DNA of 40,962 nucleotides from contig CAMKEK010000001.1 in the NCBI GenBank assembly GCA_946411545.1, forward strand, positions 1-40,962, read 5' to 3'. The DNA comes from an uncultured Clostridia bacterium. Its GTDB lineage: Bacteria > Bacillota > Clostridia > Oscillospirales > Oscillospiraceae. The notes under the pieces are model-generated. The model made no database searches. It was given only the letters and a program-made list of their open reading frames with translations, and was not told the DNA's origin. Each line of letters starts with the position of its first letter. Within the stretch, counting starts at the first letter, position 1. A program made the position numbers and the translations under genes. Shown one piece after another: positions 2,122 to 26,190 of this stretch.

Positions 2122-2145
2122 GTAGGGGCGGATATCATCCGCCCG
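2122..2145 (-). repeat. family-1 hairpin element, variant stem (GTAGGGGCGGATATCATCCGCCCG), intergenic
   Basis: Same GTAGGGGC head; perfect stem GGGCGGAT/ATCCGCCC. Confidence 0.8.
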
Positions 2146-2159
2146 CCTTCGTCTAAACC

Positions 2160-2186
2160 GTAGGGGCCGACGCCCTCGGCGGCCCG
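2160..2186 (-). repeat. family-1 hairpin element, subtype A, intergenic
   Basis: GTAGGGGCCGACGCCCTCGGCGGCCCG; 27/27 identical to the copies at 7787 and 21817. Confidence 0.9.
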
Positions 2187-2202
2187 TCGTCTCCCCCGTC
2201 TC

Positions 2203-2233
2203 CTGAAAACTGAAATCTGAAATCTGAAAACTA
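2203..2233. repeat. heptad repeat (CTGAAAA/CTGAAAT x4) abutting the stop codon of the giant gene
   Basis: ctgaaaactgaaatctgaaatctgaaaacta; TGA at 2204, 2211, 2218 and 2225 covers all three plus-strand frames. Confidence 0.85.
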
Positions 2234-5200
2234 TTTCCGGTGCCACGGTGCCTTGCCGATGGTGCTCTGTGCATATCCCTTGGCGTAGTACAGCGCGTCC
2301 TTCTGGGCGTTGCTCAGCGGCATGGAGTCGATGAAGGCCAGCACCTTGTCCCGCTTGGATCCGTCGATGGTCTTCCCGTTTTCGTCCACGTCCGCCTTCA
2401 GGTCCTTGGTGCCCATGTAGCAGCTGTACCAGGTCTTCACGTCGATGCCCGCCGGCGCCGTCTCGTCCCGGTATTTCACATAGTTGCTCATCTGCGGGAA
2501 GGCCTCGGCATACTCCTCGTTGTCGTACAGGAACTCCCAGTAATCCACCTTGTTCCCGGCCGTCTCTTTGTCAAGTCCCCCATAGGTCACCAGCAGCTCC
2601 ACCGCCCGCTTCCGGTCGATGCCGCCCTCGTTCACCTCGGTCTTGATCTTGTCAAAGGCGATCCCGGTCACCACATAGCAGGTCCACTCCTGCACCGTCG
2701 CCCTGGCCTCGTCCTTGTCCATGGCGCAGTATTTCTCCAGCATTCCCGCGGCCTGCTCCTTGGAAAGCTTGGCCCCGCTCATGCCGTTGCCCTGATACTG
2801 GTCCTTGATGGCGCCGCGCACCTGGCTCCTGGCGTTCTTCTCGGTATAGCCCGCCGCCGTCAGCGCCTGCATGGCCTCCCGATAGGCAGCCTCGTCGTTG
2901 GCCAGGGCCGCCTCCTTCAGCTCCTTGTATGCCCCGCCGTTGCGCCACTCGAAGATCGTCCGGGACGCCTCCGCCTCCGTGTGGGCGATGCCCTTCTCCA
3001 GCAGCAGCTTCTTGGTCTGCTCCTCGTCCAGGAAGCCGTCCGCGAAGGCGTACTGCAGCTCCCGCTCCTCGCCCGCGTCATAGGTCTTGGCCTTCTGCCA
3101 CCCGGCCGCCGGCGCGATCAGGGTGTTGTACAGGCTGGTCACCTCCCGGGCCGCCGGTGCGATGCCGATGCCGGCGAACTGGTCCAGCATCTGCAGGGTC
3201 TTGAAGATCTTGCCCCACAGCGTCATGTTGCCGTACCAGGTGGCCTCGGTGGCCTTCTCCAGGCTGCCGTTGGCAAGCTTCACGGTCTCCTTCCAGATCC
3301 GGAACACCTCGTAAACCTTCTTCACGCTGCCCAGCACCATCAGATCCTTGTCCTCGCCCCGCAGCATGTTCACCACGTCTCCGATCACCGGCACCAGCTG
3401 TGTGGGATCCAGGTTGCCCCCGAAGTTCTTCCTGGCCGCCTCCCACCATTTCTGCAGGAAGCTCCTGTAGTCGTCGTCATCCCGGAAGGCGTCCGCGATG
3501 GCGGCGAACATGGCCGTGGCCGCGGCGGTGGCGGTGTAGACTGCGGCGGCCTTCGCCGCCTTGCGCCCGGCGGCGCGCAGGGCGTTCCGGTTCCCGCTGC
3601 GCTTGGCCAGGCTCGCCTCGCTGGCCACGTCCAGCAGCATGTTATAGGTCAGCGTTGGCTCCGCCTTGAACGCGGTAAACTCCGCCATCATCATGCTCTT
3701 GCTGCGCATGTTCTGGCTGCGGCAGATGGTGCCGTCCATCACCTGGGTGGAGAGGATCACCTCGTCAAAGCGCTCCGCCGTGGCCCGCATCAGCTCCTCG
3801 CCCCGCAGCTTGGTCTTCTCCCGCTGCTCGATCTCGCAGGCGTTCCACAGCGCGCCCCAGGTGGCCTGGTCGCCCCACTCGGCAAGCTTCGTGCCCTTGT
3901 CCGTCAGCCAGCTCCGCCGGTCCACGTCGTGCTTGATCTGCCGCCGGATGCCCGGGTTGATGTTGGTGTCGAAATAGCCCAGATCTTTCCACACTGCAAG
4001 CCCGGAATACTTCAGCGCCTTCTCCCGGCCGCCCTTCATGGCCGCGCCTCTGGCCAGATACTGCGCGTCGATCACCATGGACGCCCGCATGATGGAGGTG
4101 GGCTGCTGCAGCGCCACCCGCAGGTTGAAGCTGATGGCCGCCACCTTGGCCCGGCTCATCAGGTCCTTCAGGGTCTCCTCGCCCCGGCCGCCCTCGTTGT
4201 TGCCGTTCAGGTCCTGCAGGAAGGTGATGAAGTAGCTGCCCGCCTCCTTGCCGTAAACCCGCTCCAGCGTCTTCTGCACGCTCTCGGTGGTATACTGGCC
4301 GTCCTCGCTGCTCTCGCTGATATCCCGGTAGTTGTACCAGCGCATGGCGTCCACCAGCGGCAGGCCCAGGGCGTTGTACTTGGCCATGTCCGCCATGTGG
4401 TTTGCGAAGGTATCGAAGATGCTGTCCAGCACGATGGCGTTGTTGGCGTTTCTCACTGTGTTCTTGGTAAAGCCCATGGTCACCAGCCTGTACAGGTTCG
4501 CCCGGTCCGCGTCCGGGCTTCTGGCGTCCCGGCTTCGGCTGTCGGTCTTGATGGGGTAATAGTTCTCCTCCGTGAAGGAACGGATGCCCCACCGGGCCAT
4601 GGAGATCTCGTTGCCCCAGTCGCTGCCCTGGGTGTTCATGTACTTCTGCAGCGCGTCGGCCACTTCCTTCTGCCGCTCCGTCAGGCTGTCCACCATCTCG
4701 GCCACCGTCTCCAGATCCAGCAGATAGTTCTCGCTCTGCACCACCTCGCTGCGTCCCTGTCGGTAATTGGCCACCCGGATGCCGGCGCCCAGCAGGTGCC
4801 CCCGGGCCTGCTCCCTCTTCATCAGGCAGTAAAGGCCCATCAGCTGCGCCGTGGTCACCGTCACGGTCTCCGTCTCCCGGGTCTCGCCGCCGTCGTTTTC
4901 CTCCGCCGCGATGTCCTGCAGCCTCCGCCGCAGCTCAAAGCTGTGCACCTCCTTCTCCCAGGCCTGCACCTCCTGGCTGCTGTATGCCTTCTCCGCATAC
5001 TCGATCACCTGCTGCATGTTCATGGCCATCTTGCCCCAGCCCCGGCGCAGCTCCCGGAAGATCTGCTGTCCGCCGCTGCCGAAGCGCTTGAAGGCATAGA
5101 AGGGTGTGGCGTTGTCCCAGGCCAGGATCCGCCGCAGCTTGTCCCCTCTGGTGCTGCTTCTGCCCTGAACCTTCTCCAGGTCCCGGATGCTGCCGCTTGC

Positions 5201-8200
5201 GGCCTCTGCCACGCTCCTGCCGTTCTCGTCCGCCAGCAGGGTGTCCGCCTTGCGGATCGCCTCGCTGAAGGCCGTCAGGATCTCCTCCAGGCTCTGCAGC
5301 TGCTCCAGGTCCATCTGGTAGATGCTCCAGGCCTCGCCCTTCCTGGCCCGCTCCACAAAGGGCTGGATCATCTCGTCCATGAACGGCAGCAGGTCAAGCT
5401 GCACCCCGCTGGCAGGCAGCTCACCCCGCTCCTGCGCCAGCGCCGCCTTGGCCAGAATGTTCTGCAGCTCCTGCATCTGCTGGATGTACTGTTTCCGGTA
5501 CTTCTCCTGCGCCCTCGGGCTCAGCGCGTCGATGCTCAGAAGGAACTCGCTCAGCGCCTGTTTCCATACCTCCGGCACATGCTTCTTGCTGCTGTTCTCC
5601 TGCAGGATTTTGGCAAGCCGCTCCCGGGCCTTGGCCACCCGGACCCGCGCCCGGTACTCCTGCTCCCGCTGGACGGACCGCTGCCGCAGCTCATAGGCCT
5701 TTTCCCTGGCCAGCTGATTGCGCAGCCGCTTCTCCTCCCGCAGCCGCTCCTGCAGGTCGTCCCGCCGGGCCCGCTCCCACTTCATCTGGTCCTCCGCGTC
5801 GTTCAGCTGCTGCTGCCGCGCCCGGTCCTTTGCCGCGTACTTCTGCTCCAGTCTCTCCATGGCTCTCTGGTAGTTCCGGTCCGCCATGGTCTCCTTCACG
5901 CCAACCTCGCCGCTCAGCAGCCGGTCGATGATCTCGTTGCCCAGCTCCTCCGAAGCGTCCCGCAGCCGGTAGCCCTCAAACATCCGGAAGTCCTGGGGCT
6001 CCAGACTCTGCAGCACGCCCAGCACCTCATACAGCTGGTCGCTGGGTGCCATCGCGTCCTCCGGGAACAGTTCCTCCCCGAAGGTGCCCCGCAGATCCTG
6101 ATACAGCTGGTCCATGCTCATGCCGTCCCGGCTGAAAGACAGCGTGCCGAAGTTCCGCTTCCGGAAGTCGGCAAAGTCCGGGATGTCGCTGCCGAACTGC
6201 TCGGTGCCGATGCGGTGGTTCCTCAGATACTCCCGCAGATCCCGCCGCAGCTCCGCCCGCTCGTCCTCGGTATACCAGCTGTTCTCCAGAATGTGCCGGG
6301 CAAGCGTCACCGCCTGCCGCCTCAGCTCGTTGAAGAAGCCCACGCCGCCGCCCTGCTGGTTCTGCACCATGAAGTCGCCCAGCGCCTGCAGCTGCGCCGC
6401 GATCTCCGCCGCATCCGCCTGACTGTCCGTCTGCTTCAGCAGCGCCTTGGCCATCCGCCGCACGTCCTCCGGCAGCAGCGTCGCCTGCCCCGGCTCCGTC
6501 CGCCTGGCCTCCCGCCGGTAGTATTCCACATACTCCTGCAGCGCCTTGTTCTCCTCCCGCAGCGCACGCATGTTCCGGGCGGCCTGCTCCGGGTTTGCCT
6601 CCCGCCAGGCGGCAAGGGCTCTCTCCGCCGTCCGCTTCAGCGCCGGCGTCTGCTCCGCCTTCTTCAGCGCCTTCTCCGCCCGCTCGATCTGAGCCTCCAG
6701 CTTCTCAATCTCCCCCCGCAGCTTCTCGGCCTGCGCCTTTGCCTCCTCCGTGTAGGGGCCGACGCTCTCGGCGGCCGGCTCCCCGGTCTCGGCAGCCAGC
6801 CCATTCTCCAATTCCGAATTCTCCCGCTCCAGTGCCTCCAGCGCCGCTCTCCTGCGCTCCAGCTTCTCCTGGGCCCGCTCCATGCTCCGCACCTTCCGGG
6901 CGTACTCCTGCACGTCCAGGCCGGCTCTGGGCGTCTCAGCGGCCTCCATCAAAAGCTCCCGATCCGTCGGCGCCGCATCCCGCTCCTGATATAGCGTCCC
7001 GTCATCCCTCTCTGTGTAGGTAAACAGTTTGCTTTCGTCACTCTGACTGGTGTACAGCAATCCGCCCTCAGCTCGTGGAATGTTCTTGACAGCACTATAA
7101 AGCTGTGATACATTGTAACTGTCACCTGAAGGACTCCGGGTACTCCCGCTTGCGGGGTTGAAACCTTGTCCGAGGGTGACATTTTCTATATCACGAAAAG
7201 CGTAGGACCGCGCGCTTCCGTCAGCGTTCTGGACAATGGTTCCCACCATAGCGCGTATTTCTGTGACCTGCTCGCCGTCCCTGGTTGTAGTGTACTTATA
7301 GAGGTTATAAAGCCGATAGCCATATAGTGCTTTATACTTGTTGTCGGTATGAACCCGTTCCACATTCAGCAGGATGCTGTTTTTGAATATCTCCTTTAGA
7401 TGTGGAATTATATCCAGCGTTGCCTGGTAGTCAAAATCAGGGTCTGTATTCAACCGATTGGCAATGCTTTCCGATACGATGTCTTCGTTAAGATAAGCGG
7501 TTATATCAAGCTGTTGAATGTCCACCGTTGTTCTTTTCCCGTAAGCTTTTCGGAATGCTGCCCTCCCTGCTGCATAGAGACTTCTACGTCCACGCACCAC
7601 ACTTCTGGCGTGTACAGGCTCCAGGACAAGCGGCGTGATATCGTTCCGCATGGTCTGCTCAAAATTTGCAGAAAGCGGAAAATGGTCTCCCAGCCTCCGG
7701 CTCAGATCGTCCAAGCCTAATTTCGCATACCGTTCCCTGATTGGGTTATAAATCTCCCGCTCCTCCAGCTGCGTCTCGTCCCCTTCGTAGGGGCCGACGC
7801 CCTCGGCGGCCCGCTCATTGCCTTCCCCTTGAGGGGAAGGTGCCCGAAGGGCGGATGAGGTGTCCCCCGCCGCAGCGGAAGACGTGCTGCTCTCCGCATT
7901 CCGAACTCCGGACTCCGCATTGGCCCCGTTCCTGGCCGCCGCCACGAAGGCCCGATCCCAGATGTCCTGCAGCTCGTCCAGATATCCCTCCATGGCCTTG
8001 GCCTCTTCGTGGAATGCCTCCACGCCCTCGAAGGCGTCGGCGATCCGCGCCGCCCAGCGCCGCAGCCAGCGGCGGATGCTGTTGAACAGGCCCGGATTAT
8101 CCTGCGCCAGGCTCTCCGCCACCGTGGTCCGCCGCAGCATCATCTCGCAGCCGTCGCACACCACCTCGTCTATGGCCGCGTCATAGCTCAGCTTCCCCGT

Positions 8201-11200
8201 GGTGTCCCTGTCCAGCTTCGCCAGCACCAGCTCGCCCAGGCTCTTCCCCTGATACTCGCTCAGATGCGTCAGCAGAAAGTCCGTCAGCTCCCGGTACTGG
8301 GCTGCGCCCTGATCCTGGATGAAGTGGGTCAGCTCGTGGGCAGCCGTCCGGATGATGGCCACCTGGCTCAGACTCCGGCTGCTGTAGGCCCCGGCGTTCA
8401 CATCCAGGAAGATGCCCTCCCCGCTGCGATAGCCGCCGTTGGCCCCCTGGAACCGGCCCTTGCTGTCCTTGCGGCTCTGGTAGAAGTGTACGTTCACCCC
8501 GCTGATCTCCGCCAGCATGGTCACCGCCTTGATCTGCTTCTTCTGTCGCCGCGTCAGCTTCGACTGGTCCACCGCGTCATACCGCACGCCGTTCATCACA
8601 GCCCCGTCATAGCTCACCGTGCCCTTGGCTCTGGGCCCCCGCGTTCCTGTCGCCGCAGCGACAGATGAGGCTCCCGCCGCAGTGGTGCCCACTCCCACGG
8701 TAACGCCCGCCGCCTCCACCGAGGCGGCGTTTTTTTGCGCCGTCTGGGCAACTTCCGCCCCCGTCTGTACGGTCTCCCCCGTGTAGGGGCCGGCGCCCTC
8801 GACGATCCGCCCGCTCTCCGGCGCCGAATTCTGAATTCCGGCCTCCGCATTGGCCGCGCTCCGTCCCTGCTCCACCGCAAGGCGCAGCTGATCCTCCGTC
8901 AGGCTCTCCAGCAGGATCGGGCTCCGCTCTATGATCTGCTCCACCGTAAGGCTGGTGCGCTTGCCGTAAAGCTTTTCCGCCTGCTCCCAGGCCGCGGCAT
9001 AGGCCTCGATGTTCTGCCCGCTCTCATAGGCCGTAAAGGCCAGCGGCGCGCTCTCGCCCAGCCGCTCCCGCAGCGTGTTGCCAAGCTTCCGCACCGCCTC
9101 CGGCAGCCGCTCGTCCTCCGCGTCCAGCACCTGGGTGCCCGTCTCTGTGTGCACCTCCACGCTGCCGTCTGCCCGCATGACGCCGATGCTGCCCGCCTGG
9201 CCTTCCTCCAGCGTCACGCTCTCGTTCTTGTCCGCCGCCGTCACGTCCTCGGTTGCGGTGTCCTCCGTCTCCCCGGCTGTGGCATTGTCCGCCGTTCCGG
9301 TTCCCGCGTCGGTGACCATCCGGCTCTCCCCGGCATACAGACCGTCGCCCAGACGCACGGTGCCCATGTTCTCGGCCCAGGCGCTGCTGTGGGTTTCGTT
9401 CAGGATGTTGTCCGGGCTCATCTCCTCCAGCACCCGCCGGCCGTACTTGCTCTCGCCCAGGATGCGCTGCCCGTCAGGCCCCAGCAGCTTCCCGCTCTTG
9501 AAGTCCTCGACGGCCTTGTCCGCCGCCCGGTCGCTGGTGGCCTCCCGGATCCGGTTCCACATCTCCTGCGCCGCGTTGGTGATCAGCCTGGCCAGGTTCC
9601 CGGCATTCTCTCCCTCGCCAAGCTCCGTCAGCCGCTCCTCCACCGCCGCGTTCATGGTCTCCTGGTCCGCCTCGGTGATGGCCGCGTCCAGCTTTGCCGC
9701 GCCGAAGCCCCGCAGCGCCTTCCCGCTGTTCTGATACCCCTGCGCCATCTGATAGGCCGCGCTGTCCTCCGGCAGCATCGCCGCCTCGTTGAAAAGGGTC
9801 TCCGCCGTCTCGCTGTCCACGGTGCTCACGCCCTGGACCGCCTGCTGCCCGCCGGCGCCGAAGATGCCGCCCACGGCCTCGCTCACGAAGTCCCAGGCCA
9901 TGTCCTCCATGGTCTCCTTGGAAGCTTGCTGTTCCGCCTGCTCCGGGCTCATGGTCACGCTGTACTCCGTCACCTTCTGGTTGTATTCGCTCTGCCGTCC
10001 GTTGACCCACTCGTCCGCGGCAAAGCCCATGAAGGAGCTGAACAGGCCCTCCGCGCCCTCGAACATGCCCTGAATCCCCGTGTTCTTCAGGAACTCCCCG
10101 ATGTTCTTCGGCGCGCCGGTCTTCAGCAGGTGATCCAGCGGCAGATACTCGCTCCCGGTCTCCGCCGCCCAGCAGAAGGCGGCATACAGCAGCGCCTGGC
10201 CATAGTCGCCCGTCCGGGCCAGTGCCTCGTCATAGCCGCTCTCTGCCGCGCCGCCGCCCATCATGATGGCCGTCATCGCCGCGCCCAGCACATGGCCCCA
10301 GCCCAGGCTCTGCAGCGTGCTGTTGCCGATCTGGTAAAGGTCGCCCAGACCCCGGTCCTTGCCGAAGAAGCGGATGGTGCCCAGGTCGTTCAATGCCTCG
10401 GCGGATCCGCCCGCGATGGCGTTGGCCGCCTCAAAGCCGTTGGCGTAATCCCGCTCCGTGACGTAGCCCTTCTCCGCGTACTCCGCGGCGTCCAGCAGGA
10501 AGTATACCCCCGCGATGGGCATGCCCAGCACGCTTGCGATGCTGCCCGCAGCGCCGCCCCAGGCGCTGGTGTTGCCCCAGTCCTGATACTCCTGCAGCTC
10601 TGCGTTCTTCTTCTGGTGGGCAATGGAATTGTTCACACTGCGGGCAAAGGCAAAGGCCTTCTCCTTGGCGTCCTCTCCCTCCTGTCCGTACAGATAGCCG
10701 AAGATCTCCTGCTGCTCCTGGGTCCACTCCTCCGTCGGCCCGTTCTCGTCATAGTCCAGCCGGTTCCGTTCGTAGAAGCTGCTTGCGTCCTCTCTGTTCG
10801 CCGCCTCCGACCACGACTCCTCCATCCAGCCCTCAACCTTCTCCTGCCGGTCCATCAGATCCTGGCTGTAGGCGTTCATGCCCGCTGTGGCCGCCGCCGC
10901 AAACTCCGTGTCCTCCGGATCCGTCGCCCGCACATACAGGTCGCTGTACCGCTGGGCCCCGGAGAACTGCTCATACAGATACGCCCGGGTATAGTCCTCC
11001 TGGGCTGCCGCCGCCTCCTCACGCACCGGCGCCGCCGCAGCATCCCGGTTCTCCTGAGCCGCCTGATACTCCTGCCACTGCTCTGCCGTGATCAGGCCAA
11101 ACTCCTGCGCCTTCTCCCAGCCGTGCTCGGTCAGGCGGCCTTCCTCGTCCGTCAGCTCCGTATCGTCCCAGAACAGATCGGTCAGCGTATCGGCGATTGC

Positions 11201-12046
11201 CTTCTCCTCCGCGTTCAGGCCCTGCTCCCAAACCGTGGCGATCTTGTCCGCCCTGGAGTCCTCCAGCGCCTTCTCCGCCGCCTGCTGCCGCTCATAGGCC
11301 GCGTCCGCCGCTGCCGCGTTCTGCTCCGCCCATTCCTCCATGCTCATGCCGCCCACCCGGGCGTTGGCCATGTCCAGGGAATAGTCCTGATAGGCCTCCC
11401 AGGCCTCCTTGCTTCCGAAGTCCTCGATGCCCTGCAGAACGTAGTCCAGTCCGCCCCGTCCGGCATCCGTGCCGAAGGGTCCCGGCATGCTGCCCCAGCC
11501 TTCCTCCGCCGGCCGGTAAAAGCCCGGCAGCACCGGCGCCGCCGTCTGCGTCCCGCCGGCTGTCACACCCTCAATGTCTTCCCCTGTAGGGGATGGCGTC
11601 CTCGACGTCCCGTCGCCGGGCAGGCTGCTCTCCCCCCAGCTCCATTCGTCCTCCTCGTCCTCGTCCTTCTTCCTCGCTGTGGTGTCCACGGCCCCCACGC
11701 CAAGGCCCATGGCCGCAAGCCGCGCCGTATAATCGCTGAACCAGTCCTTCCGCGTCCCGCCCGTCTCCGGGTTCTGCCCCGCAAGGCCGCTCAGCGTTCC
11801 GAAGTCCAGCCCCGTCACATACCGTCCGCTGTAGTCATTCCCCACCACCCGCGGCCCCGTCTGCCGGGAAGTATTCGATCTGTTCCCGGTAATGTTGCCC
11901 ATGATGATTTCAAACGCGCTTCTCGGTTCCTCGCTCTGGCTCCCGCCGTTTGAGGCCCCATAGGTTTTCTCGCTGCTGGAACCGCTGGAGCTGCTGGAAC
12001 TCCCGCCCCCGTTGATGTTGTTCATGATCCGCTCAAATTTGCTCAT
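2231..12046 (-). CDS. giant multi-domain virion protein (~3270 aa), polyvalent-protein-like, with an HExxH metallopeptidase module, hydrophobic segments and a long coiled coil
   Basis: Single uninterrupted ORF. I prefer the ATG at 12046 (GGAAGGAGACGGGC upstream) over the ORF-track ATG at 12064. HELTH lies at 8324..8338. The gene occupies the slot after the portal where MuF/gp7-type minor head proteins usually sit. Confidence 0.8.
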   Translation of the reverse strand: MSKFERIMNNINGGGSSSSSSGSSSEKTYGASNGGSQSEEPRSAFEIIMGNITGNRSNTSRQTGPRVVGNDYSGRYVTGLDFGTLSGLAGQNPETGGTRKDWFSDYTARLAAMGLGVGAVDTTARKKDEDEEDEWSWGESSLPGDGTSRTPSPTGEDIEGVTAGGTQTAAPVLPGFYRPAEEGWGSMPGPFGTDAGRGGLDYVLQGIEDFGSKEAWEAYQDYSLDMANARVGGMSMEEWAEQNAAAADAAYERQQAAEKALEDSRADKIATVWEQGLNAEEKAIADTLTDLFWDDTELTDEEGRLTEHGWEKAQEFGLITAEQWQEYQAAQENRDAAAAPVREEAAAAQEDYTRAYLYEQFSGAQRYSDLYVRATDPEDTEFAAAATAGMNAYSQDLMDRQEKVEGWMEESWSEAANREDASSFYERNRLDYDENGPTEEWTQEQQEIFGYLYGQEGEDAKEKAFAFARSVNNSIAHQKKNAELQEYQDWGNTSAWGGAAGSIASVLGMPIAGVYFLLDAAEYAEKGYVTERDYANGFEAANAIAGGSAEALNDLGTIRFFGKDRGLGDLYQIGNSTLQSLGWGHVLGAAMTAIMMGGGAAESGYDEALARTGDYGQALLYAAFCWAAETGSEYLPLDHLLKTGAPKNIGEFLKNTGIQGMFEGAEGLFSSFMGFAADEWVNGRQSEYNQKVTEYSVTMSPEQAEQQASKETMEDMAWDFVSEAVGGIFGAGGQQAVQGVSTVDSETAETLFNEAAMLPEDSAAYQMAQGYQNSGKALRGFGAAKLDAAITEADQETMNAAVEERLTELGEGENAGNLARLITNAAQEMWNRIREATSDRAADKAVEDFKSGKLLGPDGQRILGESKYGRRVLEEMSPDNILNETHSSAWAENMGTVRLGDGLYAGESRMVTDAGTGTADNATAGETEDTATEDVTAADKNESVTLEEGQAGSIGVMRADGSVEVHTETGTQVLDAEDERLPEAVRKLGNTLRERLGESAPLAFTAYESGQNIEAYAAAWEQAEKLYGKRTSLTVEQIIERSPILLESLTEDQLRLAVEQGRSAANAEAGIQNSAPESGRIVEGAGPYTGETVQTGAEVAQTAQKNAASVEAAGVTVGVGTTAAGASSVAAATGTRGPRAKGTVSYDGAVMNGVRYDAVDQSKLTRRQKKQIKAVTMLAEISGVNVHFYQSRKDSKGRFQGANGGYRSGEGIFLDVNAGAYSSRSLSQVAIIRTAAHELTHFIQDQGAAQYRELTDFLLTHLSEYQGKSLGELVLAKLDRDTTGKLSYDAAIDEVVCDGCEMMLRRTTVAESLAQDNPGLFNSIRRWLRRWAARIADAFEGVEAFHEEAKAMEGYLDELQDIWDRAFVAAARNGANAESGVRNAESSTSSAAAGDTSSALRAPSPQGEGNERAAEGVGPYEGDETQLEEREIYNPIRERYAKLGLDDLSRRLGDHFPLSANFEQTMRNDITPLVLEPVHARSVVRGRRSLYAAGRAAFRKAYGKRTTVDIQQLDITAYLNEDIVSESIANRLNTDPDFDYQATLDIIPHLKEIFKNSILLNVERVHTDNKYKALYGYRLYNLYKYTTTRDGEQVTEIRAMVGTIVQNADGSARSYAFRDIENVTLGQGFNPASGSTRSPSGDSYNVSQLYSAVKNIPRAEGGLLYTSQSDESKLFTYTERDDGTLYQERDAAPTDRELLMEAAETPRAGLDVQEYARKVRSMERAQEKLERRRAALEALERENSELENGLAAETGEPAAESVGPYTEEAKAQAEKLRGEIEKLEAQIERAEKALKKAEQTPALKRTAERALAAWREANPEQAARNMRALREENKALQEYVEYYRREARRTEPGQATLLPEDVRRMAKALLKQTDSQADAAEIAAQLQALGDFMVQNQQGGGVGFFNELRRQAVTLARHILENSWYTEDERAELRRDLREYLRNHRIGTEQFGSDIPDFADFRKRNFGTLSFSRDGMSMDQLYQDLRGTFGEELFPEDAMAPSDQLYEVLGVLQSLEPQDFRMFEGYRLRDASEELGNEIIDRLLSGEVGVKETMADRNYQRAMERLEQKYAAKDRARQQQLNDAEDQMKWERARRDDLQERLREEKRLRNQLAREKAYELRQRSVQREQEYRARVRVAKARERLAKILQENSSKKHVPEVWKQALSEFLLSIDALSPRAQEKYRKQYIQQMQELQNILAKAALAQERGELPASGVQLDLLPFMDEMIQPFVERARKGEAWSIYQMDLEQLQSLEEILTAFSEAIRKADTLLADENGRSVAEAASGSIRDLEKVQGRSSTRGDKLRRILAWDNATPFYAFKRFGSGGQQIFRELRRGWGKMAMNMQQVIEYAEKAYSSQEVQAWEKEVHSFELRRRLQDIAAEENDGGETRETETVTVTTAQLMGLYCLMKREQARGHLLGAGIRVANYRQGRSEVVQSENYLLDLETVAEMVDSLTERQKEVADALQKYMNTQGSDWGNEISMARWGIRSFTEENYYPIKTDSRSRDARSPDADRANLYRLVTMGFTKNTVRNANNAIVLDSIFDTFANHMADMAKYNALGLPLVDAMRWYNYRDISESSEDGQYTTESVQKTLERVYGKEAGSYFITFLQDLNGNNEGGRGEETLKDLMSRAKVAAISFNLRVALQQPTSIMRASMVIDAQYLARGAAMKGGREKALKYSGLAVWKDLGYFDTNINPGIRRQIKHDVDRRSWLTDKGTKLAEWGDQATWGALWNACEIEQREKTKLRGEELMRATAERFDEVILSTQVMDGTICRSQNMRSKSMMMAEFTAFKAEPTLTYNMLLDVASEASLAKRSGNRNALRAAGRKAAKAAAVYTATAAATAMFAAIADAFRDDDDYRSFLQKWWEAARKNFGGNLDPTQLVPVIGDVVNMLRGEDKDLMVLGSVKKVYEVFRIWKETVKLANGSLEKATEATWYGNMTLWGKIFKTLQMLDQFAGIGIAPAAREVTSLYNTLIAPAAGWQKAKTYDAGEERELQYAFADGFLDEEQTKKLLLEKGIAHTEAEASRTIFEWRNGGAYKELKEAALANDEAAYREAMQALTAAGYTEKNARSQVRGAIKDQYQGNGMSGAKLSKEQAAGMLEKYCAMDKDEARATVQEWTCYVVTGIAFDKIKTEVNEGGIDRKRAVELLVTYGGLDKETAGNKVDYWEFLYDNEEYAEAFPQMSNYVKYRDETAPAGIDVKTWYSCYMGTKDLKADVDENGKTIDGSKRDKVLAFIDSMPLSNAQKDALYYAKGYAQSTIGKAPWHRK
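6752..6778 (-). repeat. family-1 hairpin element in frame in the giant gene (PAAESVGPY)
   Basis: GTAGGGGCCGACGCTCTCGGCGGCCGG. Confidence 0.85.
7787..7813 (-). repeat. family-1 hairpin element in frame in the giant gene (RAAEGVGPY)
   Basis: GTAGGGGCCGACGCCCTCGGCGGCCCG. Confidence 0.9.
7825..7868 (-). repeat. family-2 element (GGGGAAGGTG-hairpin-GGATGAGG) in frame in the giant gene (APSPQGEG)
   Basis: ccccttgaggggaaggtgcccgaagggcggatgaggtgtccccc; related to 18351..18390 and 25784..25828. Confidence 0.6.
8783..8809 (-). repeat. family-1 hairpin element in frame in the giant gene (GRIVEGAGPY)
   Basis: GTAGGGGCCGGCGCCCTCGACGATCCG. Confidence 0.8.
11586..11612 (-). repeat. family-1 hairpin element, diverged, in frame in the giant gene (GTSRTPSPT)
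   Basis: GTAGGGGATGGCGTCCTCGACGTCCCG. Confidence 0.7.
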
Positions 12047-12109
12047 GCCCGTCTCCTTCCGCATTGTCCCGATATGCCGCAGGGGCGGGGTCTTGCCCCG
12101 CCCGCTTTC

Positions 12110-13670: not shown

Positions 13671-15887
13671 TCAGTCCGGCTGGCTGGCCCGCGCCGCCCG
13701 CTCCCGGGCCTTGCGCACATGGGTGGCCTCTCCCGCGTTTCCGGTGGCGGCGGCCTCCTGCGTGGGCATCGCCGCCTGCCCGGAGCTGGGGAACGCGCCT
13801 CCCGCCATGGCAGCGCCTCCCGTGATTGCCTGGGCAAGCCCCGGCACCAGGTCCGGCCGGTACTGCTGGGCCAGCGTCAGCGCCATCTGCTGGAACTGCA
13901 CCAGCTTCTGATACATGTCCGCGTTCATCGCGATCCGCTGCGCCACCTTGTCCTTGCCTTCAAACTCCATCATGTCCAGCACCGCCATGGCCATGTCCCC
14001 GTTCTGGGGGCTGAAGAAGCCCGCTCCGTATAGCTGCATGGCCAGCTCGTTCTGGGCAAGCTTGGTGTAGGGGTTGCGCTTCTGGGGCTCGATCTTGATA
14101 TCGAACACCGGCAGCCGGAACCCCATGTCCACGCTGCCCATCATGCCCTGCCACTGGGGCTGCAGTCCCTGGTTGGAGTACCGGGTAAACTCATCGCTGC
14201 CGTCGCGCCCCGTGATGCGGAAGGTGCGCGGCATGTCATAGAACTGCCTCACCAGCTCGATCACCTGATCCACCAGCTCCGCGAAGGCCCGATAGCTGGC
14301 CTTGGCGCTGTCCCGGCTTCCCTTGCCGCTGGCTTCCTGCAGCGCCGCGATGGCGGAGGCCGCCGTGGCCCCGCTGGTGGAGATGCCGTTGGCCGTCTCC
14401 GTGTTGCCTGTGGTCTCCCGCAGCTCGCTGATGGTCTGCTCCAGGACGTTGATGTAGTTGCCGTGCAGGCTGTTCACCTCCACCCGGCGCAGGCTGTCCT
14501 CGCCCAGGTTGCCGCTGACGTGCACCAGCGCCTTGTGCAGGTCCAGAAACTCCTCCTCGTTCACCGCGCCGTCGCTGCGGGCGAAGTAACGCGGTGTGGC
14601 CCCGGCCATGGTGTTCTTGATGAAGGCGGTCTTCATCAGGTCCACCTGGGTCTGCTCGTTGGCCGCCAGATCCACGAAGCCATAGCCGCAGGGGCTCCCC
14701 TCCACAGGGAACAGCACGTCAAACACAAAGGGATACTTCCCGTGCTCGTAAAGTCCCCGGCTGGAATTGGTCGCACGGAATCCGGAATTCGGAAGCGCAG
14801 GCACAGCGCCCGGCATACCCGGCGCACCCACACCCGGTCCCGCTCCCATGCCCGGCACAGCGCCTGCAGGGGCCGGCGTCCTCGGCGGCCCGCCCTCTGG
14901 TTCCCGCAGCCCGGCGGCGCCTGGTATGCCTCCCATGCCCGGCACAGCGCCTGTAGGGGCCGGCGTCCTCGACGGCCCGCCCCCGGTATCCCCCAACCCG
15001 GCAGCGCCCATGCCCGGTCCTTCTCCGTAGGGGCCGACGCCCCCGGCGGCCCGTCCTCCCGGCACAGCGCCCGGCATCCTCGTGTCCTGTCCGGTCTGCT
15101 CCGTGGCGTACAGCACCACATCCCCCACGAACTGGCAGTAATGCAGCACCCGTCTGCCGCCCTCGAAGCGGTGGTAGTAGTGGTTGATCACCGTGAACTG
15201 GTTGTCCGTGGGCACCTGATCGTCATACAGGAACTTGGTGGCCTGGAAGGCGTCCGGCTTCAGCCGCCCCCGCAGCTGGGGATACTGCTCGATCAGCGTG
15301 TCCCCGTCCTCCAGGTAGGTGTAGAACAGGTGCCGGCTGTCCTGGATGTCCGCCACGCCCGGCTCCCAGAACAGGTTCAGAAGGTTCACGGTCTGGATGC
15401 TGATGTCCCCCAGCCCGTTCAGCTTTGACTTGTCCCAGGTGATCATGTATACGCCCGTGCCGGTCTTCAGCTTCTGCCACATGGCCCGGTCATAGGTGTG
15501 TTCAAAGCGGTTCTGCTCCAGGATGCAGGGGATCACGGCTGACAGCATCCTGGCCTCCTGCTGGTCTCCCTTCTCTCTGGGCAGGATGTTGGGCTCCGGA
15601 TAGGCCTCCATGGCGTCCGCGTGCTTGGAGGCGATCACGTTGTGCAGCCACCCGCTCTTGGCGTTGAACTCCGCCGGGTCCAGCTCGCTGACCTTGGCCT
15701 CCTCCATCTCGTTGCGCAGCTTCCACCAGTTTTCCGCGTTCTGCACCCGGCGCTCCAGCCGCGCCTTGCCGGTCTTGTACTTCTGCAGAATCCGCATCCA
15801 GTCCCGCAGGGTCTCCTTGGTGATGGGGCCCTTCCGGTCCTCCTCCGCACGCCATCCCGGCGCCTGCTCGTTGATAATCTGATCCAT
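13671..15887 (-). CDS. portal protein carrying a ~100-aa Gly/Pro/Ala-rich insertion
   Basis: Immediately downstream of terL; size; ATG at 15887 preceded by GAGGAGGAG (MDQIINEQ...). The ORF-track start at 15905 is less likely. Confidence 0.8.
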   Translation of the reverse strand: MDQIINEQAPGWRAEEDRKGPITKETLRDWMRILQKYKTGKARLERRVQNAENWWKLRNEMEEAKVSELDPAEFNAKSGWLHNVIASKHADAMEAYPEPNILPREKGDQQEARMLSAVIPCILEQNRFEHTYDRAMWQKLKTGTGVYMITWDKSKLNGLGDISIQTVNLLNLFWEPGVADIQDSRHLFYTYLEDGDTLIEQYPQLRGRLKPDAFQATKFLYDDQVPTDNQFTVINHYYHRFEGGRRVLHYCQFVGDVVLYATEQTGQDTRMPGAVPGGRAAGGVGPYGEGPGMGAAGLGDTGGGPSRTPAPTGAVPGMGGIPGAAGLREPEGGPPRTPAPAGAVPGMGAGPGVGAPGMPGAVPALPNSGFRATNSSRGLYEHGKYPFVFDVLFPVEGSPCGYGFVDLAANEQTQVDLMKTAFIKNTMAGATPRYFARSDGAVNEEEFLDLHKALVHVSGNLGEDSLRRVEVNSLHGNYINVLEQTISELRETTGNTETANGISTSGATAASAIAALQEASGKGSRDSAKASYRAFAELVDQVIELVRQFYDMPRTFRITGRDGSDEFTRYSNQGLQPQWQGMMGSVDMGFRLPVFDIKIEPQKRNPYTKLAQNELAMQLYGAGFFSPQNGDMAMAVLDMMEFEGKDKVAQRIAMNADMYQKLVQFQQMALTLAQQYRPDLVPGLAQAITGGAAMAGGAFPSSGQAAMPTQEAAATGNAGEATHVRKARERAARASQPD
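14866..14892 (-). repeat. family-1 hairpin element in frame in the portal gene (GPPRTPAPA)
   Basis: GCAGGGGCCGGCGTCCTCGGCGGCCCG. Confidence 0.8.
14953..14979 (-). repeat. family-1 hairpin element, subtype B, in frame in the portal gene (GPSRTPAPT)
   Basis: GTAGGGGCCGGCGTCCTCGACGGCCCG; 27/27 identical to the copy at 24348. Confidence 0.9.
15027..15053 (-). repeat. family-1 hairpin element in frame in the portal gene (RAAGGVGPY)
   Basis: GTAGGGGCCGACGCCCCCGGCGGCCCG. Confidence 0.85.
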
Positions 15888-15897
15888 AGCTCCTCCT

Positions 15898-17354: not shown

Positions 17355-17355
17355 A

Positions 17356-19779: not shown

Positions 19780-20213
19780 GCTCTCACCTCCACGCAGTTT
19801 TCTCCCGTAGGGGCCGTCGTCATCGACTGCCCGTATGAGATGGGGGAGACGGGGCCTGCGTTGGAGATGTGCAAGTCGTCCCCGCCGAAGCGCTCCCACA
19901 GTCTCCGGTTGTTCTCCTCCATCACCTGCATCACGCCCCGCAGCGTATTGAGAGTCGCCTCCTTCTCCTCGATCTCCTTCTCCAGTTCCTCAACCAGATC
20001 CTCGTCCCGCCGGTGCTGCCGGCGCAGGTTCCGGTTCTCCTCCTGCAGCGTCTCGATGGCGATGGCCTGATAGGTGTCCCGCTCGTTCAGCTGCTGAAAC
20101 CGGTCCTCCTGATCCTCCCGCAGGGCCTTTGCCGCCGCCGCGGTTCCCCGGGCGCTGCGCAGCTCCCGCTCCGCCTTCATCGCTCTCTTCTTCCAGTAAT
20201 GGTCAAAAATCAT
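19776..20213 (-). CDS. coiled-coil protein (145 aa), function unknown
   Basis: AAAGGAG 8 nt upstream of the ATG at 20213; heptad-rich charged sequence. The C-terminal 20 aa are encoded by a family-1 element. Confidence 0.6.
   Translation of the reverse strand: MIFDHYWKKRAMKAERELRSARGTAAAAKALREDQEDRFQQLNERDTYQAIAIETLQEENRNLRRQHRRDEDLVEELEKEIEEKEATLNTLRGVMQVMEENNRRLWERFGGDDLHISNAGPVSPISYGQSMTTAPTGENCVEVRA
19807..19833 (-). repeat. family-1 hairpin element, diverged, forming the 3' end of the coiled-coil gene
   Basis: GTAGGGGCCGTCGTCATCGACTGCCCG. Confidence 0.65.
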
Positions 20214-20227
20214 ATTCAATACTCCTT

Positions 20228-21064: not shown

Positions 21065-21253
21065 TTATCCGTCATTCACGCCGAAGCGCTGAATATACTT
21101 CTCCACGTCCTGCACCATGCGCCTGGCCTGCATCAGCAGGAAGGCCAGGTTCCCCCGCGCCTTCCCGCTGCTGTCCGTCTGGTCTTTCTCCAGCGCCGTC
21201 AGGATCTCCGCCGCCCGTTCCAGCTCTCTCAGGTACTGCTCCGCGCTTTTCAT
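21065..21253 (-). CDS. small helical protein (62 aa)
   Basis: ATGA overlap with the upstream gene; coding-like composition. Confidence 0.5.
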   Translation of the reverse strand: MKSAEQYLRELERAAEILTALEKDQTDSSGKARGNLAFLLMQARRMVQDVEKYIQRFGVNDG

Positions 21254-22299
21254 GTCTGGATCCCCACCCAGGGCGCCAGAATGGTTTTCAGCGCCCCGGC
21301 CAGCTTCGCGCCCGTCTCCGGGTCCTGCAGCTTCACCGCTTCCAGGCTGTCCCGCAGCGCTGCCAGCTCCCGCTGCACCGCCTTGAAGTGGAAGCCGAAC
21401 TCCGCAATGTCCTTGTTGGAGGCGGCCAGCTGTTTCCGTGCCTGTTCCAGCTCATTCCGGGCCGCCGCAGCCGTCAGCTCCGCCTCCCGCAGCTTTTCTG
21501 CGGTCTCTTCCCCGGCCTTTTCCGCCTTCTCCTTCTCCTTCTGCGCGGCGCGAAGCAGCTTGTCCTTCTCCTGCTCTGCCTTCTCCAGGTCCTTCTGCGC
21601 GACCTCCAGCCGCTTTTTCCAGGCCTCGTCCGCCTCTGCTCGGGCGGCGCTCGCCGCCTCCCGGATGGCCTCTTCATCCCGCTCAACGGCAACCGTCTGC
21701 GGCCTGGTCTCCAGCTCCCGGATGGTGTCCCGCGCAAGCCGCAGCTGCTTCTCCGCCTGCTCCAGCTCTTGCCTGGCCTCCTCCGCAGCCTTTTCCGCCT
21801 CGGCAGCCTGCGTTCTGTAGGGGCCGACGCCCTCGGCGGCCCGCTTCGCCTCCGCCTCCGCCGCGGCCTTCTCCTCCTTCAGCTTCCGGATCTCCTCCTT
21901 CAGCTCCTTCTCGCTCAGGCTCTCCGCGTCCACGCTCTCCGCGAACTCCTCCCGGTCACTTTCCGGCACGGAAAGCAGCAGCAAAGCCTTGGAAATCGGC
22001 AAATCCGAAATATATTTCGCATTTGTCTCCGGCCCGAAGAGCCCCAGCTGATCCGCCCCGTACTCACGGAAAATGCGCATGTAGTTCTGGGCGTGCCGGT
22101 CGGAGAAGGTCGTCTCCCTCTCCAGCCAGCCCAGCCATTCCCCGTGGCCCACCAGCTCCTTGGCCTCGCACAGCCGCCGCCCGATCTCGATCCCGCACAG
22201 CATCGTCACCCGCCGCCCGGTCTCCCAGATCATCCGGATCTCCGCCGCCACCGTCTCCGCCGTCCGTTCTCCCTGCCTTGTGGAAAGCTCTTCGTTCAT
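21250..22299 (-). CDS. DUF3102-like protein with long C-terminal coiled coil
   Basis: N-terminus reads IEIGRRLCEAKELVGHGEWLGWLERETTFSDRHAQNYMRIF, the pattern I associate with DUF3102. Confidence 0.6.
   Translation of the reverse strand: MNEELSTRQGERTAETVAAEIRMIWETGRRVTMLCGIEIGRRLCEAKELVGHGEWLGWLERETTFSDRHAQNYMRIFREYGADQLGLFGPETNAKYISDLPISKALLLLSVPESDREEFAESVDAESLSEKELKEEIRKLKEEKAAAEAEAKRAAEGVGPYRTQAAEAEKAAEEARQELEQAEKQLRLARDTIRELETRPQTVAVERDEEAIREAASAARAEADEAWKKRLEVAQKDLEKAEQEKDKLLRAAQKEKEKAEKAGEETAEKLREAELTAAAARNELEQARKQLAASNKDIAEFGFHFKAVQRELAALRDSLEAVKLQDPETGAKLAGALKTILAPWVGIQT
21817..21843 (-). repeat. family-1 hairpin element in frame in the DUF3102-like gene (RAAEGVGPY)
   Basis: GTAGGGGCCGACGCCCTCGGCGGCCCG. 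Confidence 0.9.
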
Positions 22300-24296: not shown

Positions 24297-24685
24297 AGGA
24301 AGTCCTCCAGATCGAAGATCTTCGTCGCCTCCGCAGGGCCTTCTCCTGTAGGGGCCGGCGTCCTCGACGGCCCGTCCTCTTCGTTGACGTTCCCCTCTGT
24401 GATCTCCATCCGGAAGCGCACGTCCGCGCCCTTCCAGTAATACCGTACAGCTCGCTTGAAGGCCTCAAGGTCGCTGATGCTTCCGCCCACGCCCTTGGCC
24501 ACTGTCTTCATACATTCCTCAAAGCTCCGGCCCTCCAGAACCTTCCGGCAAAAGCGATCGCTTTGGCGGCAGAACTCCGTCAGCGCTGCCAGCACCGCCT
24601 CCTTCATGGCCTCTTCCTTCTGGCCGAACTTCCCGGCCCCGCATTCCCGCCGCAGCTTCTCAGCGGCTTCCTCACAGCTGCTCAC
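24293..24685 (-). CDS. PcfK-like protein
   Basis: Small acidic protein directly upstream of the PcfJ-like gene; central ECMKTVAKG...AFKRAVRYYW and a C-terminal IFDLEDFL tail; AAGGAGG plus GTG start. Confidence 0.55.
   Translation of the reverse strand: MSSCEEAAEKLRRECGAGKFGQKEEAMKEAVLAALTEFCRQSDRFCRKVLEGRSFEECMKTVAKGVGGSISDLEAFKRAVRYYWKGADVRFRMEITEGNVNEEDGPSRTPAPTGEGPAEATKIFDLEDFL
24348..24374 (-). repeat. family-1 hairpin element, subtype B, in frame in the PcfK-like gene (GPSRTPAPT)
   Basis: GTAGGGGCCGGCGTCCTCGACGGCCCG. Confidence 0.9.
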
Positions 24686-24725: not shown

Positions 24726-24731
24726 CAGCAC

Positions 24732-24804: not shown

Positions 24805-24822
24805 GCGCCCTTTTCCACGCAC

Positions 24823-25032
24823 TCACGGCCTCTTGCACCATGCCGGTCTCGGGATCCCTCTGGGCTTTCCCACGCTGCTCACCGCCACCGTCCGCCGCTT
24901 CCCGCTGGCGGGCTTGTCCGGATCCATACACACGGCCCGCTGCACGTCATAGCGGTTCACCGCCTCCTCATAAGCCAAAAAGCCGCACCCGTCGCACCTC
25001 GCTGCGCTGACTGATGAGGTGTCACTTCGCAT
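24823..25032 (-). CDS. small protein (69 aa), function unknown
   Basis: High third-position GC; GGGAGAG upstream; overlaps the end of the upstream gene. Confidence 0.45.
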   Translation of the reverse strand: MRSDTSSVSAARCDGCGFLAYEEAVNRYDVQRAVCMDPDKPASGKRRTVAVSSVGKPRGIPRPAWCKRP

Positions 25033-25747
25033 CCGCTCGCTCTCCCTTCCGTCGCTGTCCTCCCCGCTCCGTGTTCGGCGGCAGGCCTTCCTTCTCCCGC
25101 CAGCGCAGGATGGTCTCCTTGTGAGCGCCCACCCGCTCCGCGATCTGGCCGTCGTTCAGCCCCTCCATGTACAGCGCCATCGCCTTCTGATAGTCGATCC
25201 GCTTCAGCGCCTTGAACTGGTTGCTCACGATCCCCTTCCGGTTCCGCCAGTTCCAGACGGACTGCTCGCTGCAGCCCAGCGCCGCCGCGATCTCCTTGTC
25301 CGTCCGGCCCTGCTTGTAAAGCTCCTCGGCCTTGTCCCAGTCGTAAATCGGCTTCGGCTTCCGGTTCACCGGCAGCCCCTGCTTCCGCCGCCAGTCGCCC
25401 ACCACATATTCCGAAGCCTTCACCTCCCGGGCGATCTCCCGGTCATTCATTCCCGCCTGCCACAGCTTCTTCATCACTATGGGATCCGGCCCCCGCCTCT
25501 GAAAGCTCAGGGGCTTCGCCTTCCGCTTCCGTTTCTTCTTCCCGTCCCAGCGGTAGCAGGGGCAGTTCTCCGGCTCCAGCATCCGCTTGGCCGCCTTCGT
25601 CAGCCGGTTCACGCCCAGAAGGCGGTACACCGCGGCCACCCGGCTCTTCCCCGTCTCGGCCGCGTAATTGCACCCGTGGAAGGACAGAAACACATGCCGG
25701 CTCCGGTTGCAGTACAGGCAGTCCCGGCTGCATTTCCCCTCGTTCAT
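25022..25747 (-). CDS. DNA-binding protein with Cys-rich N-terminus and three tandem HTH repeats
   Basis: Three repeats of the pattern L(W/Y)xxG(M/R/L)xDxEIAxxxGxxxxxVxxWRxxxG. Confidence 0.6.
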   Translation of the reverse strand: MNEGKCSRDCLYCNRSRHVFLSFHGCNYAAETGKSRVAAVYRLLGVNRLTKAAKRMLEPENCPCYRWDGKKKRKRKAKPLSFQRRGPDPIVMKKLWQAGMNDREIAREVKASEYVVGDWRRKQGLPVNRKPKPIYDWDKAEELYKQGRTDKEIAAALGCSEQSVWNWRNRKGIVSNQFKALKRIDYQKAMALYMEGLNDGQIAERVGAHKETILRWREKEGLPPNTERGGQRRKGERADAK

Positions 25748-26088
25748 GCCGTCTCCGCCTCCCGCTGCGCATTGTCCTCTTGCCCCTCCCCGCGCCGGGG
25801 AGAGGTGTCACGAAGTGACGGAGAGGGGCCGTTCTTCCACTGCCGCAGCATCAGCAGCTCCCTGCACCGGTCCCAGCCCCGCAGGCTCATGCCCTCCAGC
25901 GGCGCCAGATCCCCGATGTGGATCATCACGAATTCCCGCACCGCCGCGTCGAATCCGTATCCCGCTCTCTCCAGGCAGCGCCCCAGCAGCTCCCATTCCT
26001 CCTCCAGGGGATAGCCGCACAGCGCGCTCGCCGCCATCACCAGCCGCTCCGCCTGGTCCATCTTCGTAAGCATTCCCACCGTTTTCAT
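25744..26088 (-). CDS. hypothetical protein (114 aa)
   Basis: AAAGGAGTACAGGGA upstream of the ATG; the C-terminal tail is encoded by a family-2 element. Confidence 0.55.
   Translation of the reverse strand: MKTVGMLTKMDQAERLVMAASALCGYPLEEEWELLGRCLERAGYGFDAAVREFVMIHIGDLAPLEGMSLRGWDRCRELLMLRQWKNGPSPSLRDTSPRRGEGQEDNAQREAETA
25784..25828 (-). repeat. family-2 element in the 3' end of the 114-aa gene
   Basis: cccctccccgcgccggggagaggtgtcacgaagtgacggagagggg. Confidence 0.55.
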
Positions 26089-26124
26089 TCCCTGTACTCC
26101 TTTCTGTTCTTTCCATTTCTGTCC

Positions 26125-26190
26125 GTAGGGGCCGGGCAGAGCCTGGAACGTCGCACGCTCCCCGCGCGTCGTGATGCCCTCGGCGGCCCG
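26125..26190 (-). repeat. family-1 element, long form (head and tail conserved, ~40-nt insert in the stem), intergenic
   Basis: GTAGGGGCCG...(insert)...ATGCCCTCGGCGGCCCG. Confidence 0.7.

Follow-up and report, generated by a model that had tools for sequence, protein, structure and literature searches.

Co-oriented GTAG-type REP hairpins, most of them in frame within genes, in the genome of a temperate phage

How did a 27-nt hairpin come to lie, letter for letter, in several unrelated genes of one phage? The question is raised by contig CAMKEK010000001.1 (assembly GCA_946411545.1, from an uncultured Clostridia bacterium of the Oscillospiraceae), whose 40,962 nt, analyzed at their full length and hereafter called the window, are a circularly assembled genome of a temperate phage. 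An original prediction had described 13 copies of a short palindrome there and had likened them to mobile hairpins of the repetitive extragenic palindrome (REP) or MITE (miniature inverted-repeat transposable element) type that are tolerated in coding sequence. Our answer, to which we give a probability of roughly 0.8, is that the repeats are GTAG-type REPs of a REP/REP-associated tyrosine transposase (RAYT) system of the gut-dwelling Oscillospiraceae hosts, which have spread into the phage, mostly as in-frame inserts of nine codons in tolerant loops. The elements have the anatomy of REPs and belong to a family found in many Oscillospiraceae genomes, where RAYTs are associated with the cognate subtype; the phage carries them without a RAYT.

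REP anatomy of the hairpins in the window

We searched both strands of the window with a degenerate 27-mer, allowing up to three and then up to six mismatches, and took the expectation from shuffled sequence. The consensus GTAG-GGGCCGRCG-YCCT-CGRCGGCCC-G is represented by 11 copies at up to three mismatches, all on the plus strand, for an expectation of 0.00. Six mismatches add a single site, at 1642, and yield no copy on the minus strand, which bears out the predicted single orientation. The proposed list of 13 holds for these 11 copies, and position 1642 is, as described, a degenerate relic (1642..1668, plus strand, 21/27 matches) with a weak hairpin, inside the scaffold-like gene, where it reads GGQLKAPAPA. 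The two others are not counted with this family. The hairpin at 2122 is a member of a sister family, and 26125..26135 (plus strand) shares only the 11-nt head GTAGGGGCCGG, does not fold (z = −0.8) and is not recovered at six mismatches. As the random chance of this 11-mer is about 9%, the site is doubtful, being either a truncated remnant or a chance match.

Ten copies lie within minus-strand open reading frames (ORFs) of five genes, all of them in frame, in agreement with the prediction. The giant protein contains four: 6752..6778 (subtype A with two mismatches, aa 1763, PAAESVGPY), 7787..7813 (perfect subtype A, aa 1418, RAAEGVGPY), 8783..8809 (a hybrid subtype with two to three mismatches, aa 1086, RIVEGAGPY), and 11586..11612 (aa 151, DGTSRTPSPT), the last with a GGGGAY...GTCCCC stem variant that is also present in host genomes. 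Three are in the portal protein: 14866..14892 (GCAG head and G.G stem mismatch, aa 338, GGPPRTPAPA), 14953..14979 (perfect subtype B, aa 309, GGPSRTPAPT), and 15027..15053 (subtype A with one loop mismatch, aa 285, RAAGGVGPY). A diverged copy that still folds in spite of three mismatches (19807..19833, YGQSMTTAPT) lies near the C-terminus of a 145-aa protein (ORF 19776-20423). A perfect subtype A copy (21817..21843, aa 153, RAAEGVGPY) occupies the coiled-coil that follows the DUF3102 domain of another protein, and a perfect subtype B copy (24348..24374, aa 104, DGPSRTPAPT) the C-terminal tail of a PcfK-like protein. The eleventh copy, a perfect subtype A element at 2160..2186, is intergenic, 45 nt past the stop of the giant gene. 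All these copies read on the plus strand. The predicted 27/27 identities are exact, 2160, 7787, and 21817 being one sequence and 14953 and 24348 another.

Two of the three sense frames are used, one reading (R)AAEGVGPY (6752, 7787, 8783, 15027, and 21817) and the other GPSRTPAPT (11586, 14866, 14953, 24348, and 19807); as predicted, no sense frame of the 27-mer contains a stop. Since 10 of the 13 sites are translated and the peptides recur in homologues, the repeats might be ordinary coding sequence, in which several proteins need the peptide xxGPY or SRTPAPT and codon bias aligns the nucleotides. We consider that there is next to no chance of this. The same 27-mer gives unrelated peptides in its two frames and is identical at 27/27 positions across unrelated genes; there are intergenic copies here and, in both orientations, in hosts, and the variation is compensatory at the level of base pairs. 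Both observations that the original prediction had named as refuting it turned out otherwise, since the homologues that have the peptides carry the same nucleotides and the motif is common in other genomes. The two-frame reading and the intergenic copies refute the conserved-peptide explanation.

Folding confirmed the predicted 9-bp stem and its single mismatch, which is internal, and gave a loop of 4 nt. The folding energy is −11 kcal/mol for the GTAG strand and −8.4 kcal/mol for the CTAC strand as single-stranded DNA, and about −14 kcal/mol for the RNA. Among 83 distinct variants, each position of the GTAG foot is conserved at 90% or more, as are most stem positions, and 10 of the 11 window copies keep this foot (14866 reads GCAG). 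Six of the nine stem pairs change on both sides (48 cells), and none of 500 shuffles reaches the observed covariation score; stem pair 7 is unpaired in 49 of the 83 variants. The foot of the stem is GGG/CCC, that is, three G-C pairs. Conservation ends 1–2 nt from the hairpin (Y-GTAG...CCC-G-Y), with a pyrimidine at position −1 in about 90% of cases, and a G and then a pyrimidine after the stem. The TCTCC run that had been reported to precede the element is mostly a matter of antisense-strand composition, only the −1 pyrimidine being conserved upstream. No target-site duplication or repeated flank is visible beside the copies. In the REPs recognized by RAYT/TnpA-REP proteins, the signature is a GTAG that directly adjoins the foot of the imperfect palindrome (PMC2817692, PMC3333891), and the Escherichia coli TnpA-REP requires both the GTAG and the stem mismatch (PMC3333891).

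The element of the sister family at 2122..2145 (plus strand) is intergenic, downstream of the giant gene, and reads GTAG-GGGCGGAT-ATC-ATCCGCCC-G, a perfect palindrome (−9.5 kcal/mol, z = −4.35). This family, with the consensus GTAG-GGGCGGMT-ATYA-KCCGCCC-G, has the same GTAG-GGG foot as the main one. Thirty-six copies were collected in the fetched host and phage loci, including compensatory stem variants (L002, L025, L061, L068, L118, L323, and others), and the two families co-occur in the same host genomes and phages.

Rfam covariance models gave no match at gathering thresholds anywhere in the window. An intrinsic terminator was rejected, as the sense-strand hairpin is followed by CCCCTAC and purines and not by a U run.

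The family in bacterial genomes and its RAYT genes

The motif is abundant in other genomes. In a scan of one genome per prokaryotic species, the matches listed comprise at least 120 stretches with the element in 79 assemblies, nearly all of them metagenome-assembled genomes (MAGs) or isolates of Oscillospiraceae/Clostridia, the isolates including Oscillibacter, Lawsonibacter, and Pseudoflavonifractor. In the few 8-kb segments counted, there are up to 15 copies per assembly. One 26-mer is common to dozens of species-level genomes. The host copies occur in both orientations, about 85% of them outside confident ORFs, and in host loci neighboring copies form 146 inverted pairs, most often with a linker of 25–33 nt, resembling bacterial interspersed mosaic elements (BIMEs) or REP doublets forming hairpins (REPINs). 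Two hallmarks of REPs, extragenic location and pairing in inverted orientation, are thus found in the hosts and not in the window, where 10 of 13 sites are inside ORFs and all copies have one orientation. A place inside genes does not disqualify the copies as REPs, since intragenic members are known from published REP families as well (PMC3733652). Exact matches to the pattern were also obtained in non-Firmicutes MAGs: L026 and L111 (Kiritimatiellaeota), L028 (Acidobacteria), and L086 (Thermoanaerobaculia). Mis-binning of contigs, convergence among G+C-rich GTAG REPs, and real transfer are all conceivable sources of these matches.

A motif scan of the host loci identified five ORFs with HUH and Y motifs, which match the NCBIfam model NF047646 "REP-associated tyrosine transposase" with E values of 1e-15 to 1e-21, slightly under the curated cut-off. 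The sole relative of the host RAYT ORFs in the Protein Data Bank is the E. coli TnpA-REP (4ER8). The host RAYT loci are L004 1316-2167, L022 3114-3626, L054 6125-6634, L100 6342-6899, and, by tblastn, L093 1262-1867 on the minus strand. Each host RAYT gene harbors two inverted in-frame REPs of the subtype of its own genome, one before the HUH motif and one just after it, encoding the peptides VGADxLxGP and GPxRxxAPT, the latter directly after the HUH strand. We retrieved 2155 database relatives, some of them named "REP element-mobilizing transposase RayT". Among the best 120, both REP peptides are present in 96–106, and in 96 the segment after the HUH strand reads GPPRASAPT or GPSRTPAPT. In addition, the L093 gene contains REPs repeated in tandem, with a period of 42 nt.

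REPs placed in frame in a RAYT gene are not new: Quentin et al. [quoted passage not shown] The REPs of this subclass have a stem foot of three G-C pairs, and it is found abundantly among Cyanobacteria and Bacteroidetes (PMC6006769). By description, the host RAYTs resemble it in their in-frame REP after HUH and in the GGG/CCC foot. Unlike it, the Oscillospiraceae RAYTs have a second, opposite REP before HUH in nearly all best relatives. This constant pair of oppositely oriented REPs may be noteworthy. We found no RAYT in the window nor in 200 phage loci, which makes the phage copies non-autonomous.

Phage copies as additions to proteins, and their orientation

Alignment of the portal, PcfK-like, and DUF3102 proteins with their homologues, as the original prediction had proposed, places the REP segments in lineage-specific or unconserved stretches. 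In the portal protein (P22/SU10-type, 13671-15905, minus strand), the three REPs lie in a Gly/Pro/Ala/Met-rich insertion of 113 aa (about aa 270-382; 14760..15098, minus strand). All of 75 viral homologues align as two blocks that omit aa 270-382, and 117 of the best 120 database homologues have a loop of 5–8 aa at this place. In the closest relative (L323, 81% identity), four different hairpin-CTAC units, a subtype B REP and a unit of the 2122 type among them, make up an insert of 87 aa. These four units (L323 1000-1220) share orientation and frame (...LYG, ...GPYG, ...RPYG, ...RYG), and two of their hairpins belong to neither REP family. When metagenomes were scanned with the portal, none of the relatives obtained exceeded 57% identity, so that this search supplied no near-isogenic filled and empty sites. 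According to Tandem Repeats Finder (TRF), the copies at 14866 and 14953 are both included in a tandem duplication of 87 nt (14843..15008, plus strand, 1.9 copies, 90% identity), so they are not independent events.

In the giant protein, all four sites fall in unconserved stretches between conserved blocks, as judged by tblastn. The peptide is present in 19 of 120 DUF3102 homologues, at several positions, and missing from the closest one (82% identical). One PcfK-like homologue (L132) has a REP near the same spot in the other frame, another (L150) has none, and a third, in the Logan contig L321, has a REP identical to 24348 at the same site.

Phages whose portals are related to this one have only two copies in 80 loci totaling about 1.1 Mb, from which we conclude that the load of REPs follows the host and not the phage lineage. 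In IMGVR_UViG_3300037400_002447 (43.7 kb, represented by L135, L149, and L150), at least 17 copies of the main family are present, all in one orientation, and the DUF3102 homologue contains five REP-type peptides.

Comparison with L321, which is 95.3% identical to window 25013-21067, reveals how such segments are exchanged. Within the DUF3102 gene, about 180 nt (21700-21876), corresponding to the coiled-coil part and bearing the REP in the window, are replaced in L321 by an unrelated segment of equal length. Cassette swap and portal tandem duplication both add to any primary insertion. They also raise the possibility that no transposition into this phage took place, the REPs having been imported inside segments recombined from other phages or from the host and then multiplied by tandem duplication. 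The L321 swap and the 87-nt duplication are what this explanation predicts, as is the 42-nt-period array in a RAYT gene; in addition, P0123 shares the context AEAEAK-RAAEGVGPY with the window. However, passive import would only relocate the insertion to a different genome. Independent insertions into phage-type genes are still needed somewhere to account for ten sites in five unrelated genes, with two frames and four variants, as exemplified by the portal loop that is bare in nearly all homologues. We regard it as unlikely that import alone accounts for the copies.

Orientation poses a different problem. In other REP-bearing viral contigs, the GTAG is on the pyrimidine-rich (antisense) strand in 65 of 72 copies, and contigs with several copies keep a single orientation. 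Host copies are nearly balanced, although confidently intragenic singletons favor the phage-like sense by 18:4. Coding accounts for part of this bias. When the GTAG strand is the sense strand, one frame contains a TAG stop and another reads RGRRPRRP; with CTAC in the sense strand, two frames are harmless, and the remaining one (GRRGRRPL) is used hardly at all. Selection of frames that favors CTAC-sense reading predicts a bias of about 2:1. The predicted association of subtype with frame is borne out in the window, where a Fisher test of 4 v 3 gives p = 0.03, and was rejected as a general rule, since p = 0.41 in other phage contigs and p = 0.59 in host genomes.

A bias of this kind would be expected if the hairpins were cis-acting elements used by the phage, for stabilization, processing, or pausing of mRNA or for replication or recombination of single-stranded DNA, with their orientation kept by selection. 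The single orientation in the window and its predominance in other phage contigs fit this explanation, as do the compensatory changes that maintain the stem and the stability of the RNA hairpin. Two copies just past the stop of the giant gene lie at the classical place of REPs in mRNA protection (PMC3733652). On the other hand, in host chromosomes the elements are mostly intergenic, paired, and in both orientations; the sites are not conserved among related phages, and those related through the portal carry almost no copies. Several copies of the window are decaying (1642, 8783, and 19807), and the orientation bias follows in part from coding. A function for the phage is unnecessary to explain the copies, and we hold it to be improbable, though not negligible, given that the orientation bias has been accounted for only in part.

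The preferred reading, spread of host REPs into the phage, can be stated as a series of steps, by analogy with the E. coli TnpA-REP and IS200/IS605 (PMC3333891, PMC8266576). A host RAYT would recognize the folded GTAG strand on single-stranded DNA and cut and rejoin it at C|T, and REPs would be copied into phage DNA during the prophage state or during replication. As the phage has almost no intergenic space, only two types of insertion would survive, those just downstream of a gene and those that add 27 nt (9 codons) in a benign frame within a loop, a linker, a coiled-coil, or a terminal tail. Tandem duplication, as in the portal, and the exchange of cassettes among related phages, as in the DUF3102 gene, could later spread REP-bearing segments further, and some of the copies, such as 1642 and 19807, would then decay.

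Several observations weigh against this reading. The orientation ratio, 10:0 in the window and nearly as skewed in the other phage contigs, exceeds what frame selection predicts; the strands of replication and of transcription, either of which may be its cause, point the same way in every multi-copy contig. The phage mixes variants (subtypes A and B, the GGGGAY stem variant, and the 2122 family), whereas most of the sampled host assemblies have one dominant subtype. We found no clean 27-nt pair of filled and empty sites, the near-isogenic (95%) comparison with L321 being an equal-length cassette swap. The last 15 kb (26.2-41 kb) are devoid of copies. The original prediction had noted this for the lysogeny block, which we confirm; it had not mentioned that the minus-strand lysis and tail module (31.7-41 kb) lacks them as well. 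Although G+C content is lower at 27-35 kb (54–61%), the 35-41 kb part is equal to the REP-rich part in G+C (64–65%) and in strand composition, and the chance that 13 randomly placed copies would miss 15 of 41 kb is about 0.003, a post hoc estimate. The association of RAYT and REP subtype was read in Oscillospiraceae genomes at large; exact-protein look-ups of the integrase, the DUF3102 protein, and a tail protein of the phage, which might have led to its own host, returned no record. Finally, we know of no system in which REP transposition by a RAYT has been demonstrated in vivo.

The phage genome, precedents, and meaning

The ends of the window are identical over 54 nt (1-54 = 40909-40962), and a major-capsid-like gene spans the junction; the window is therefore a complete phage genome that was assembled as a circle, about 40.9 kb in length. 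On the minus strand, early and replication functions are followed by the terminase gene (15912-17396), the portal gene, the gene of the 3277-aa giant protein (2231-12064), located 3' of the portal gene, and the scaffold-like gene (843-1943). The early functions comprise a VRR-NUC protein, the PcfK-like protein (24293-24685), a PcfJ protein, and the DUF3102 protein (21250-22299). A Pfam search with the giant protein gave no match, and in the fetched loci tblastn found relatives for four blocks only (aa ~600-750, 1150-1400, 1800-2080, and 2150-2850). The 1584-aa ORF on the opposite strand of this gene (2240-6994) is most likely a by-product of G+C-rich composition. The PcfJ-like protein had no relatives when used as a query against viral contigs, and megablast of the 12-27 kb region against GenBank phages gave a single match of 520 nt at 75% identity.

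The lysogeny block, on the plus strand, contains the genes of a repressor and of an integrase, the latter at 29787-30896. Downstream of the integrase gene, at a distance of about 230 nt, the reverse complement of 31123-31150 reads TGGGTTCGAGTCCCACCACCGGCACCA, which is the 3' end of a tRNA or transfer-messenger RNA (tmRNA), from the T-arm through the acceptor stem to CCA. This segment is probably the attP core. ARAGORN detected no full tRNA or tmRNA gene there, and Rfam gave only a weak match to the 3' end of tmRNA; a tRNA scan of the whole window and Rfam at gathering thresholds yielded nothing relevant.

Among known systems, the closest are the GTAG REPs, BIMEs, and REPINs with their RAYTs (PMC2817692, PMC3333891, PMC3116915). 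The likeness lies in the GTAG foot, the G+C-rich imperfect palindrome of 20–40 nt, and the stem mismatch and, in the hosts, in inverted pairs with short linkers, a RAYT gene for each subtype, and, as far as the counts in 8-kb segments go, dispersed multiple copies. By contrast, the window has its copies in phage DNA, singly or as direct neighbors and all in the same orientation, with 10 of 13 translated. The REP surveys that we examined do not include the Clostridia (Oscillospiraceae) to which the hosts belong, and the same 26-mer extends across dozens of species-level genomes.

For insertion in frame, the direct precedent is the intragenic GTAG and CGTC REPs of bacteria, which lie wholly inside ORFs and keep the frame (Di Nocera et al. 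2013, PMC3733652). They encode about 9–30 aa, may be several per gene, and were inferred to be insertions by comparison with shorter homologues (PMC3733652). The genes concerned are chromosomal, often for DNA repair, and come from Proteobacteria, Opitutus, and Rickettsia; within each genome, REPs of this sort are the minority, and more than half are dimers (PMC3733652). The phage differs in that its intragenic copies are the majority, are singletons, and reside in structural and replication genes. The comparison with Rickettsia palindromic elements drawn in the original prediction is valid by analogy only, both being palindromes tolerated in frame in functional genes. RPE-1 exceeds 100 bp, and RPE-4 and RPE-6 are tagged with CGTC and not with GTAG (PMC3733652). 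The element described here is 27 nt long and tagged with GTAG, and no tie in sequence, host, or enzyme is shown.

The view of the repeats as mobile hairpins tolerated in coding sequence is upheld by their membership in a RAYT-associated GTAG REP family of Oscillospiraceae and by the lack of conservation of the phage sites in homologues. MITEs, which are typically 70–300 bp long, are likewise small, non-autonomous, and present in many copies. The phage element, at 27 nt, has neither terminal inverted repeats around a core nor a visible target-site duplication.

In-frame intragenic REPs of bacteria have thus been published; dense carriage of REPs in one orientation by a phage appears to be new. 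The REP and RAYT papers whose text we searched contain no mention of REPs in phages or Firmicutes, and according to one review, horizontally transferred elements lack RAYTs. REPs have been described as chromosomal, extragenic, and vertically inherited, whereas this 41-kb phage has about one REP per 3–4 kb, mostly translated. The mobile hairpins enlarge protein loops, by 113 aa in the portal. They are also a warning to annotators, since a 9-aa peptide that recurs unchanged in unrelated phage proteins can be a repeat at the DNA level.

Going further, temperate phages might be horizontal carriers of REPs among Oscillospiraceae, with co-oriented copies that, instead of being neutral passengers, mark the action of a host RAYT on replicating or transcribed phage DNA. 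We put this forward as a conjecture of low probability. If true, carriage by phages would help to explain how one 26-mer came to be common to dozens of species, and it would contradict the prevailing view of an almost exclusively vertical transmission of REPs and REPINs (bioRxiv 10.1101/2021.07.10.451892). Interaction of RAYTs with phage DNA could then create hot spots of cleavage or recombination that drive cassette exchange, or provide hairpins that the phage exploits. Independently of this conjecture, REP subtype could serve as a marker linking uncultured gut phages to their hosts, as CRISPR spacers and tRNA matches do, and the phage offers a compact system for asking whether RAYTs act on phage DNA and whether REPs move between hosts.

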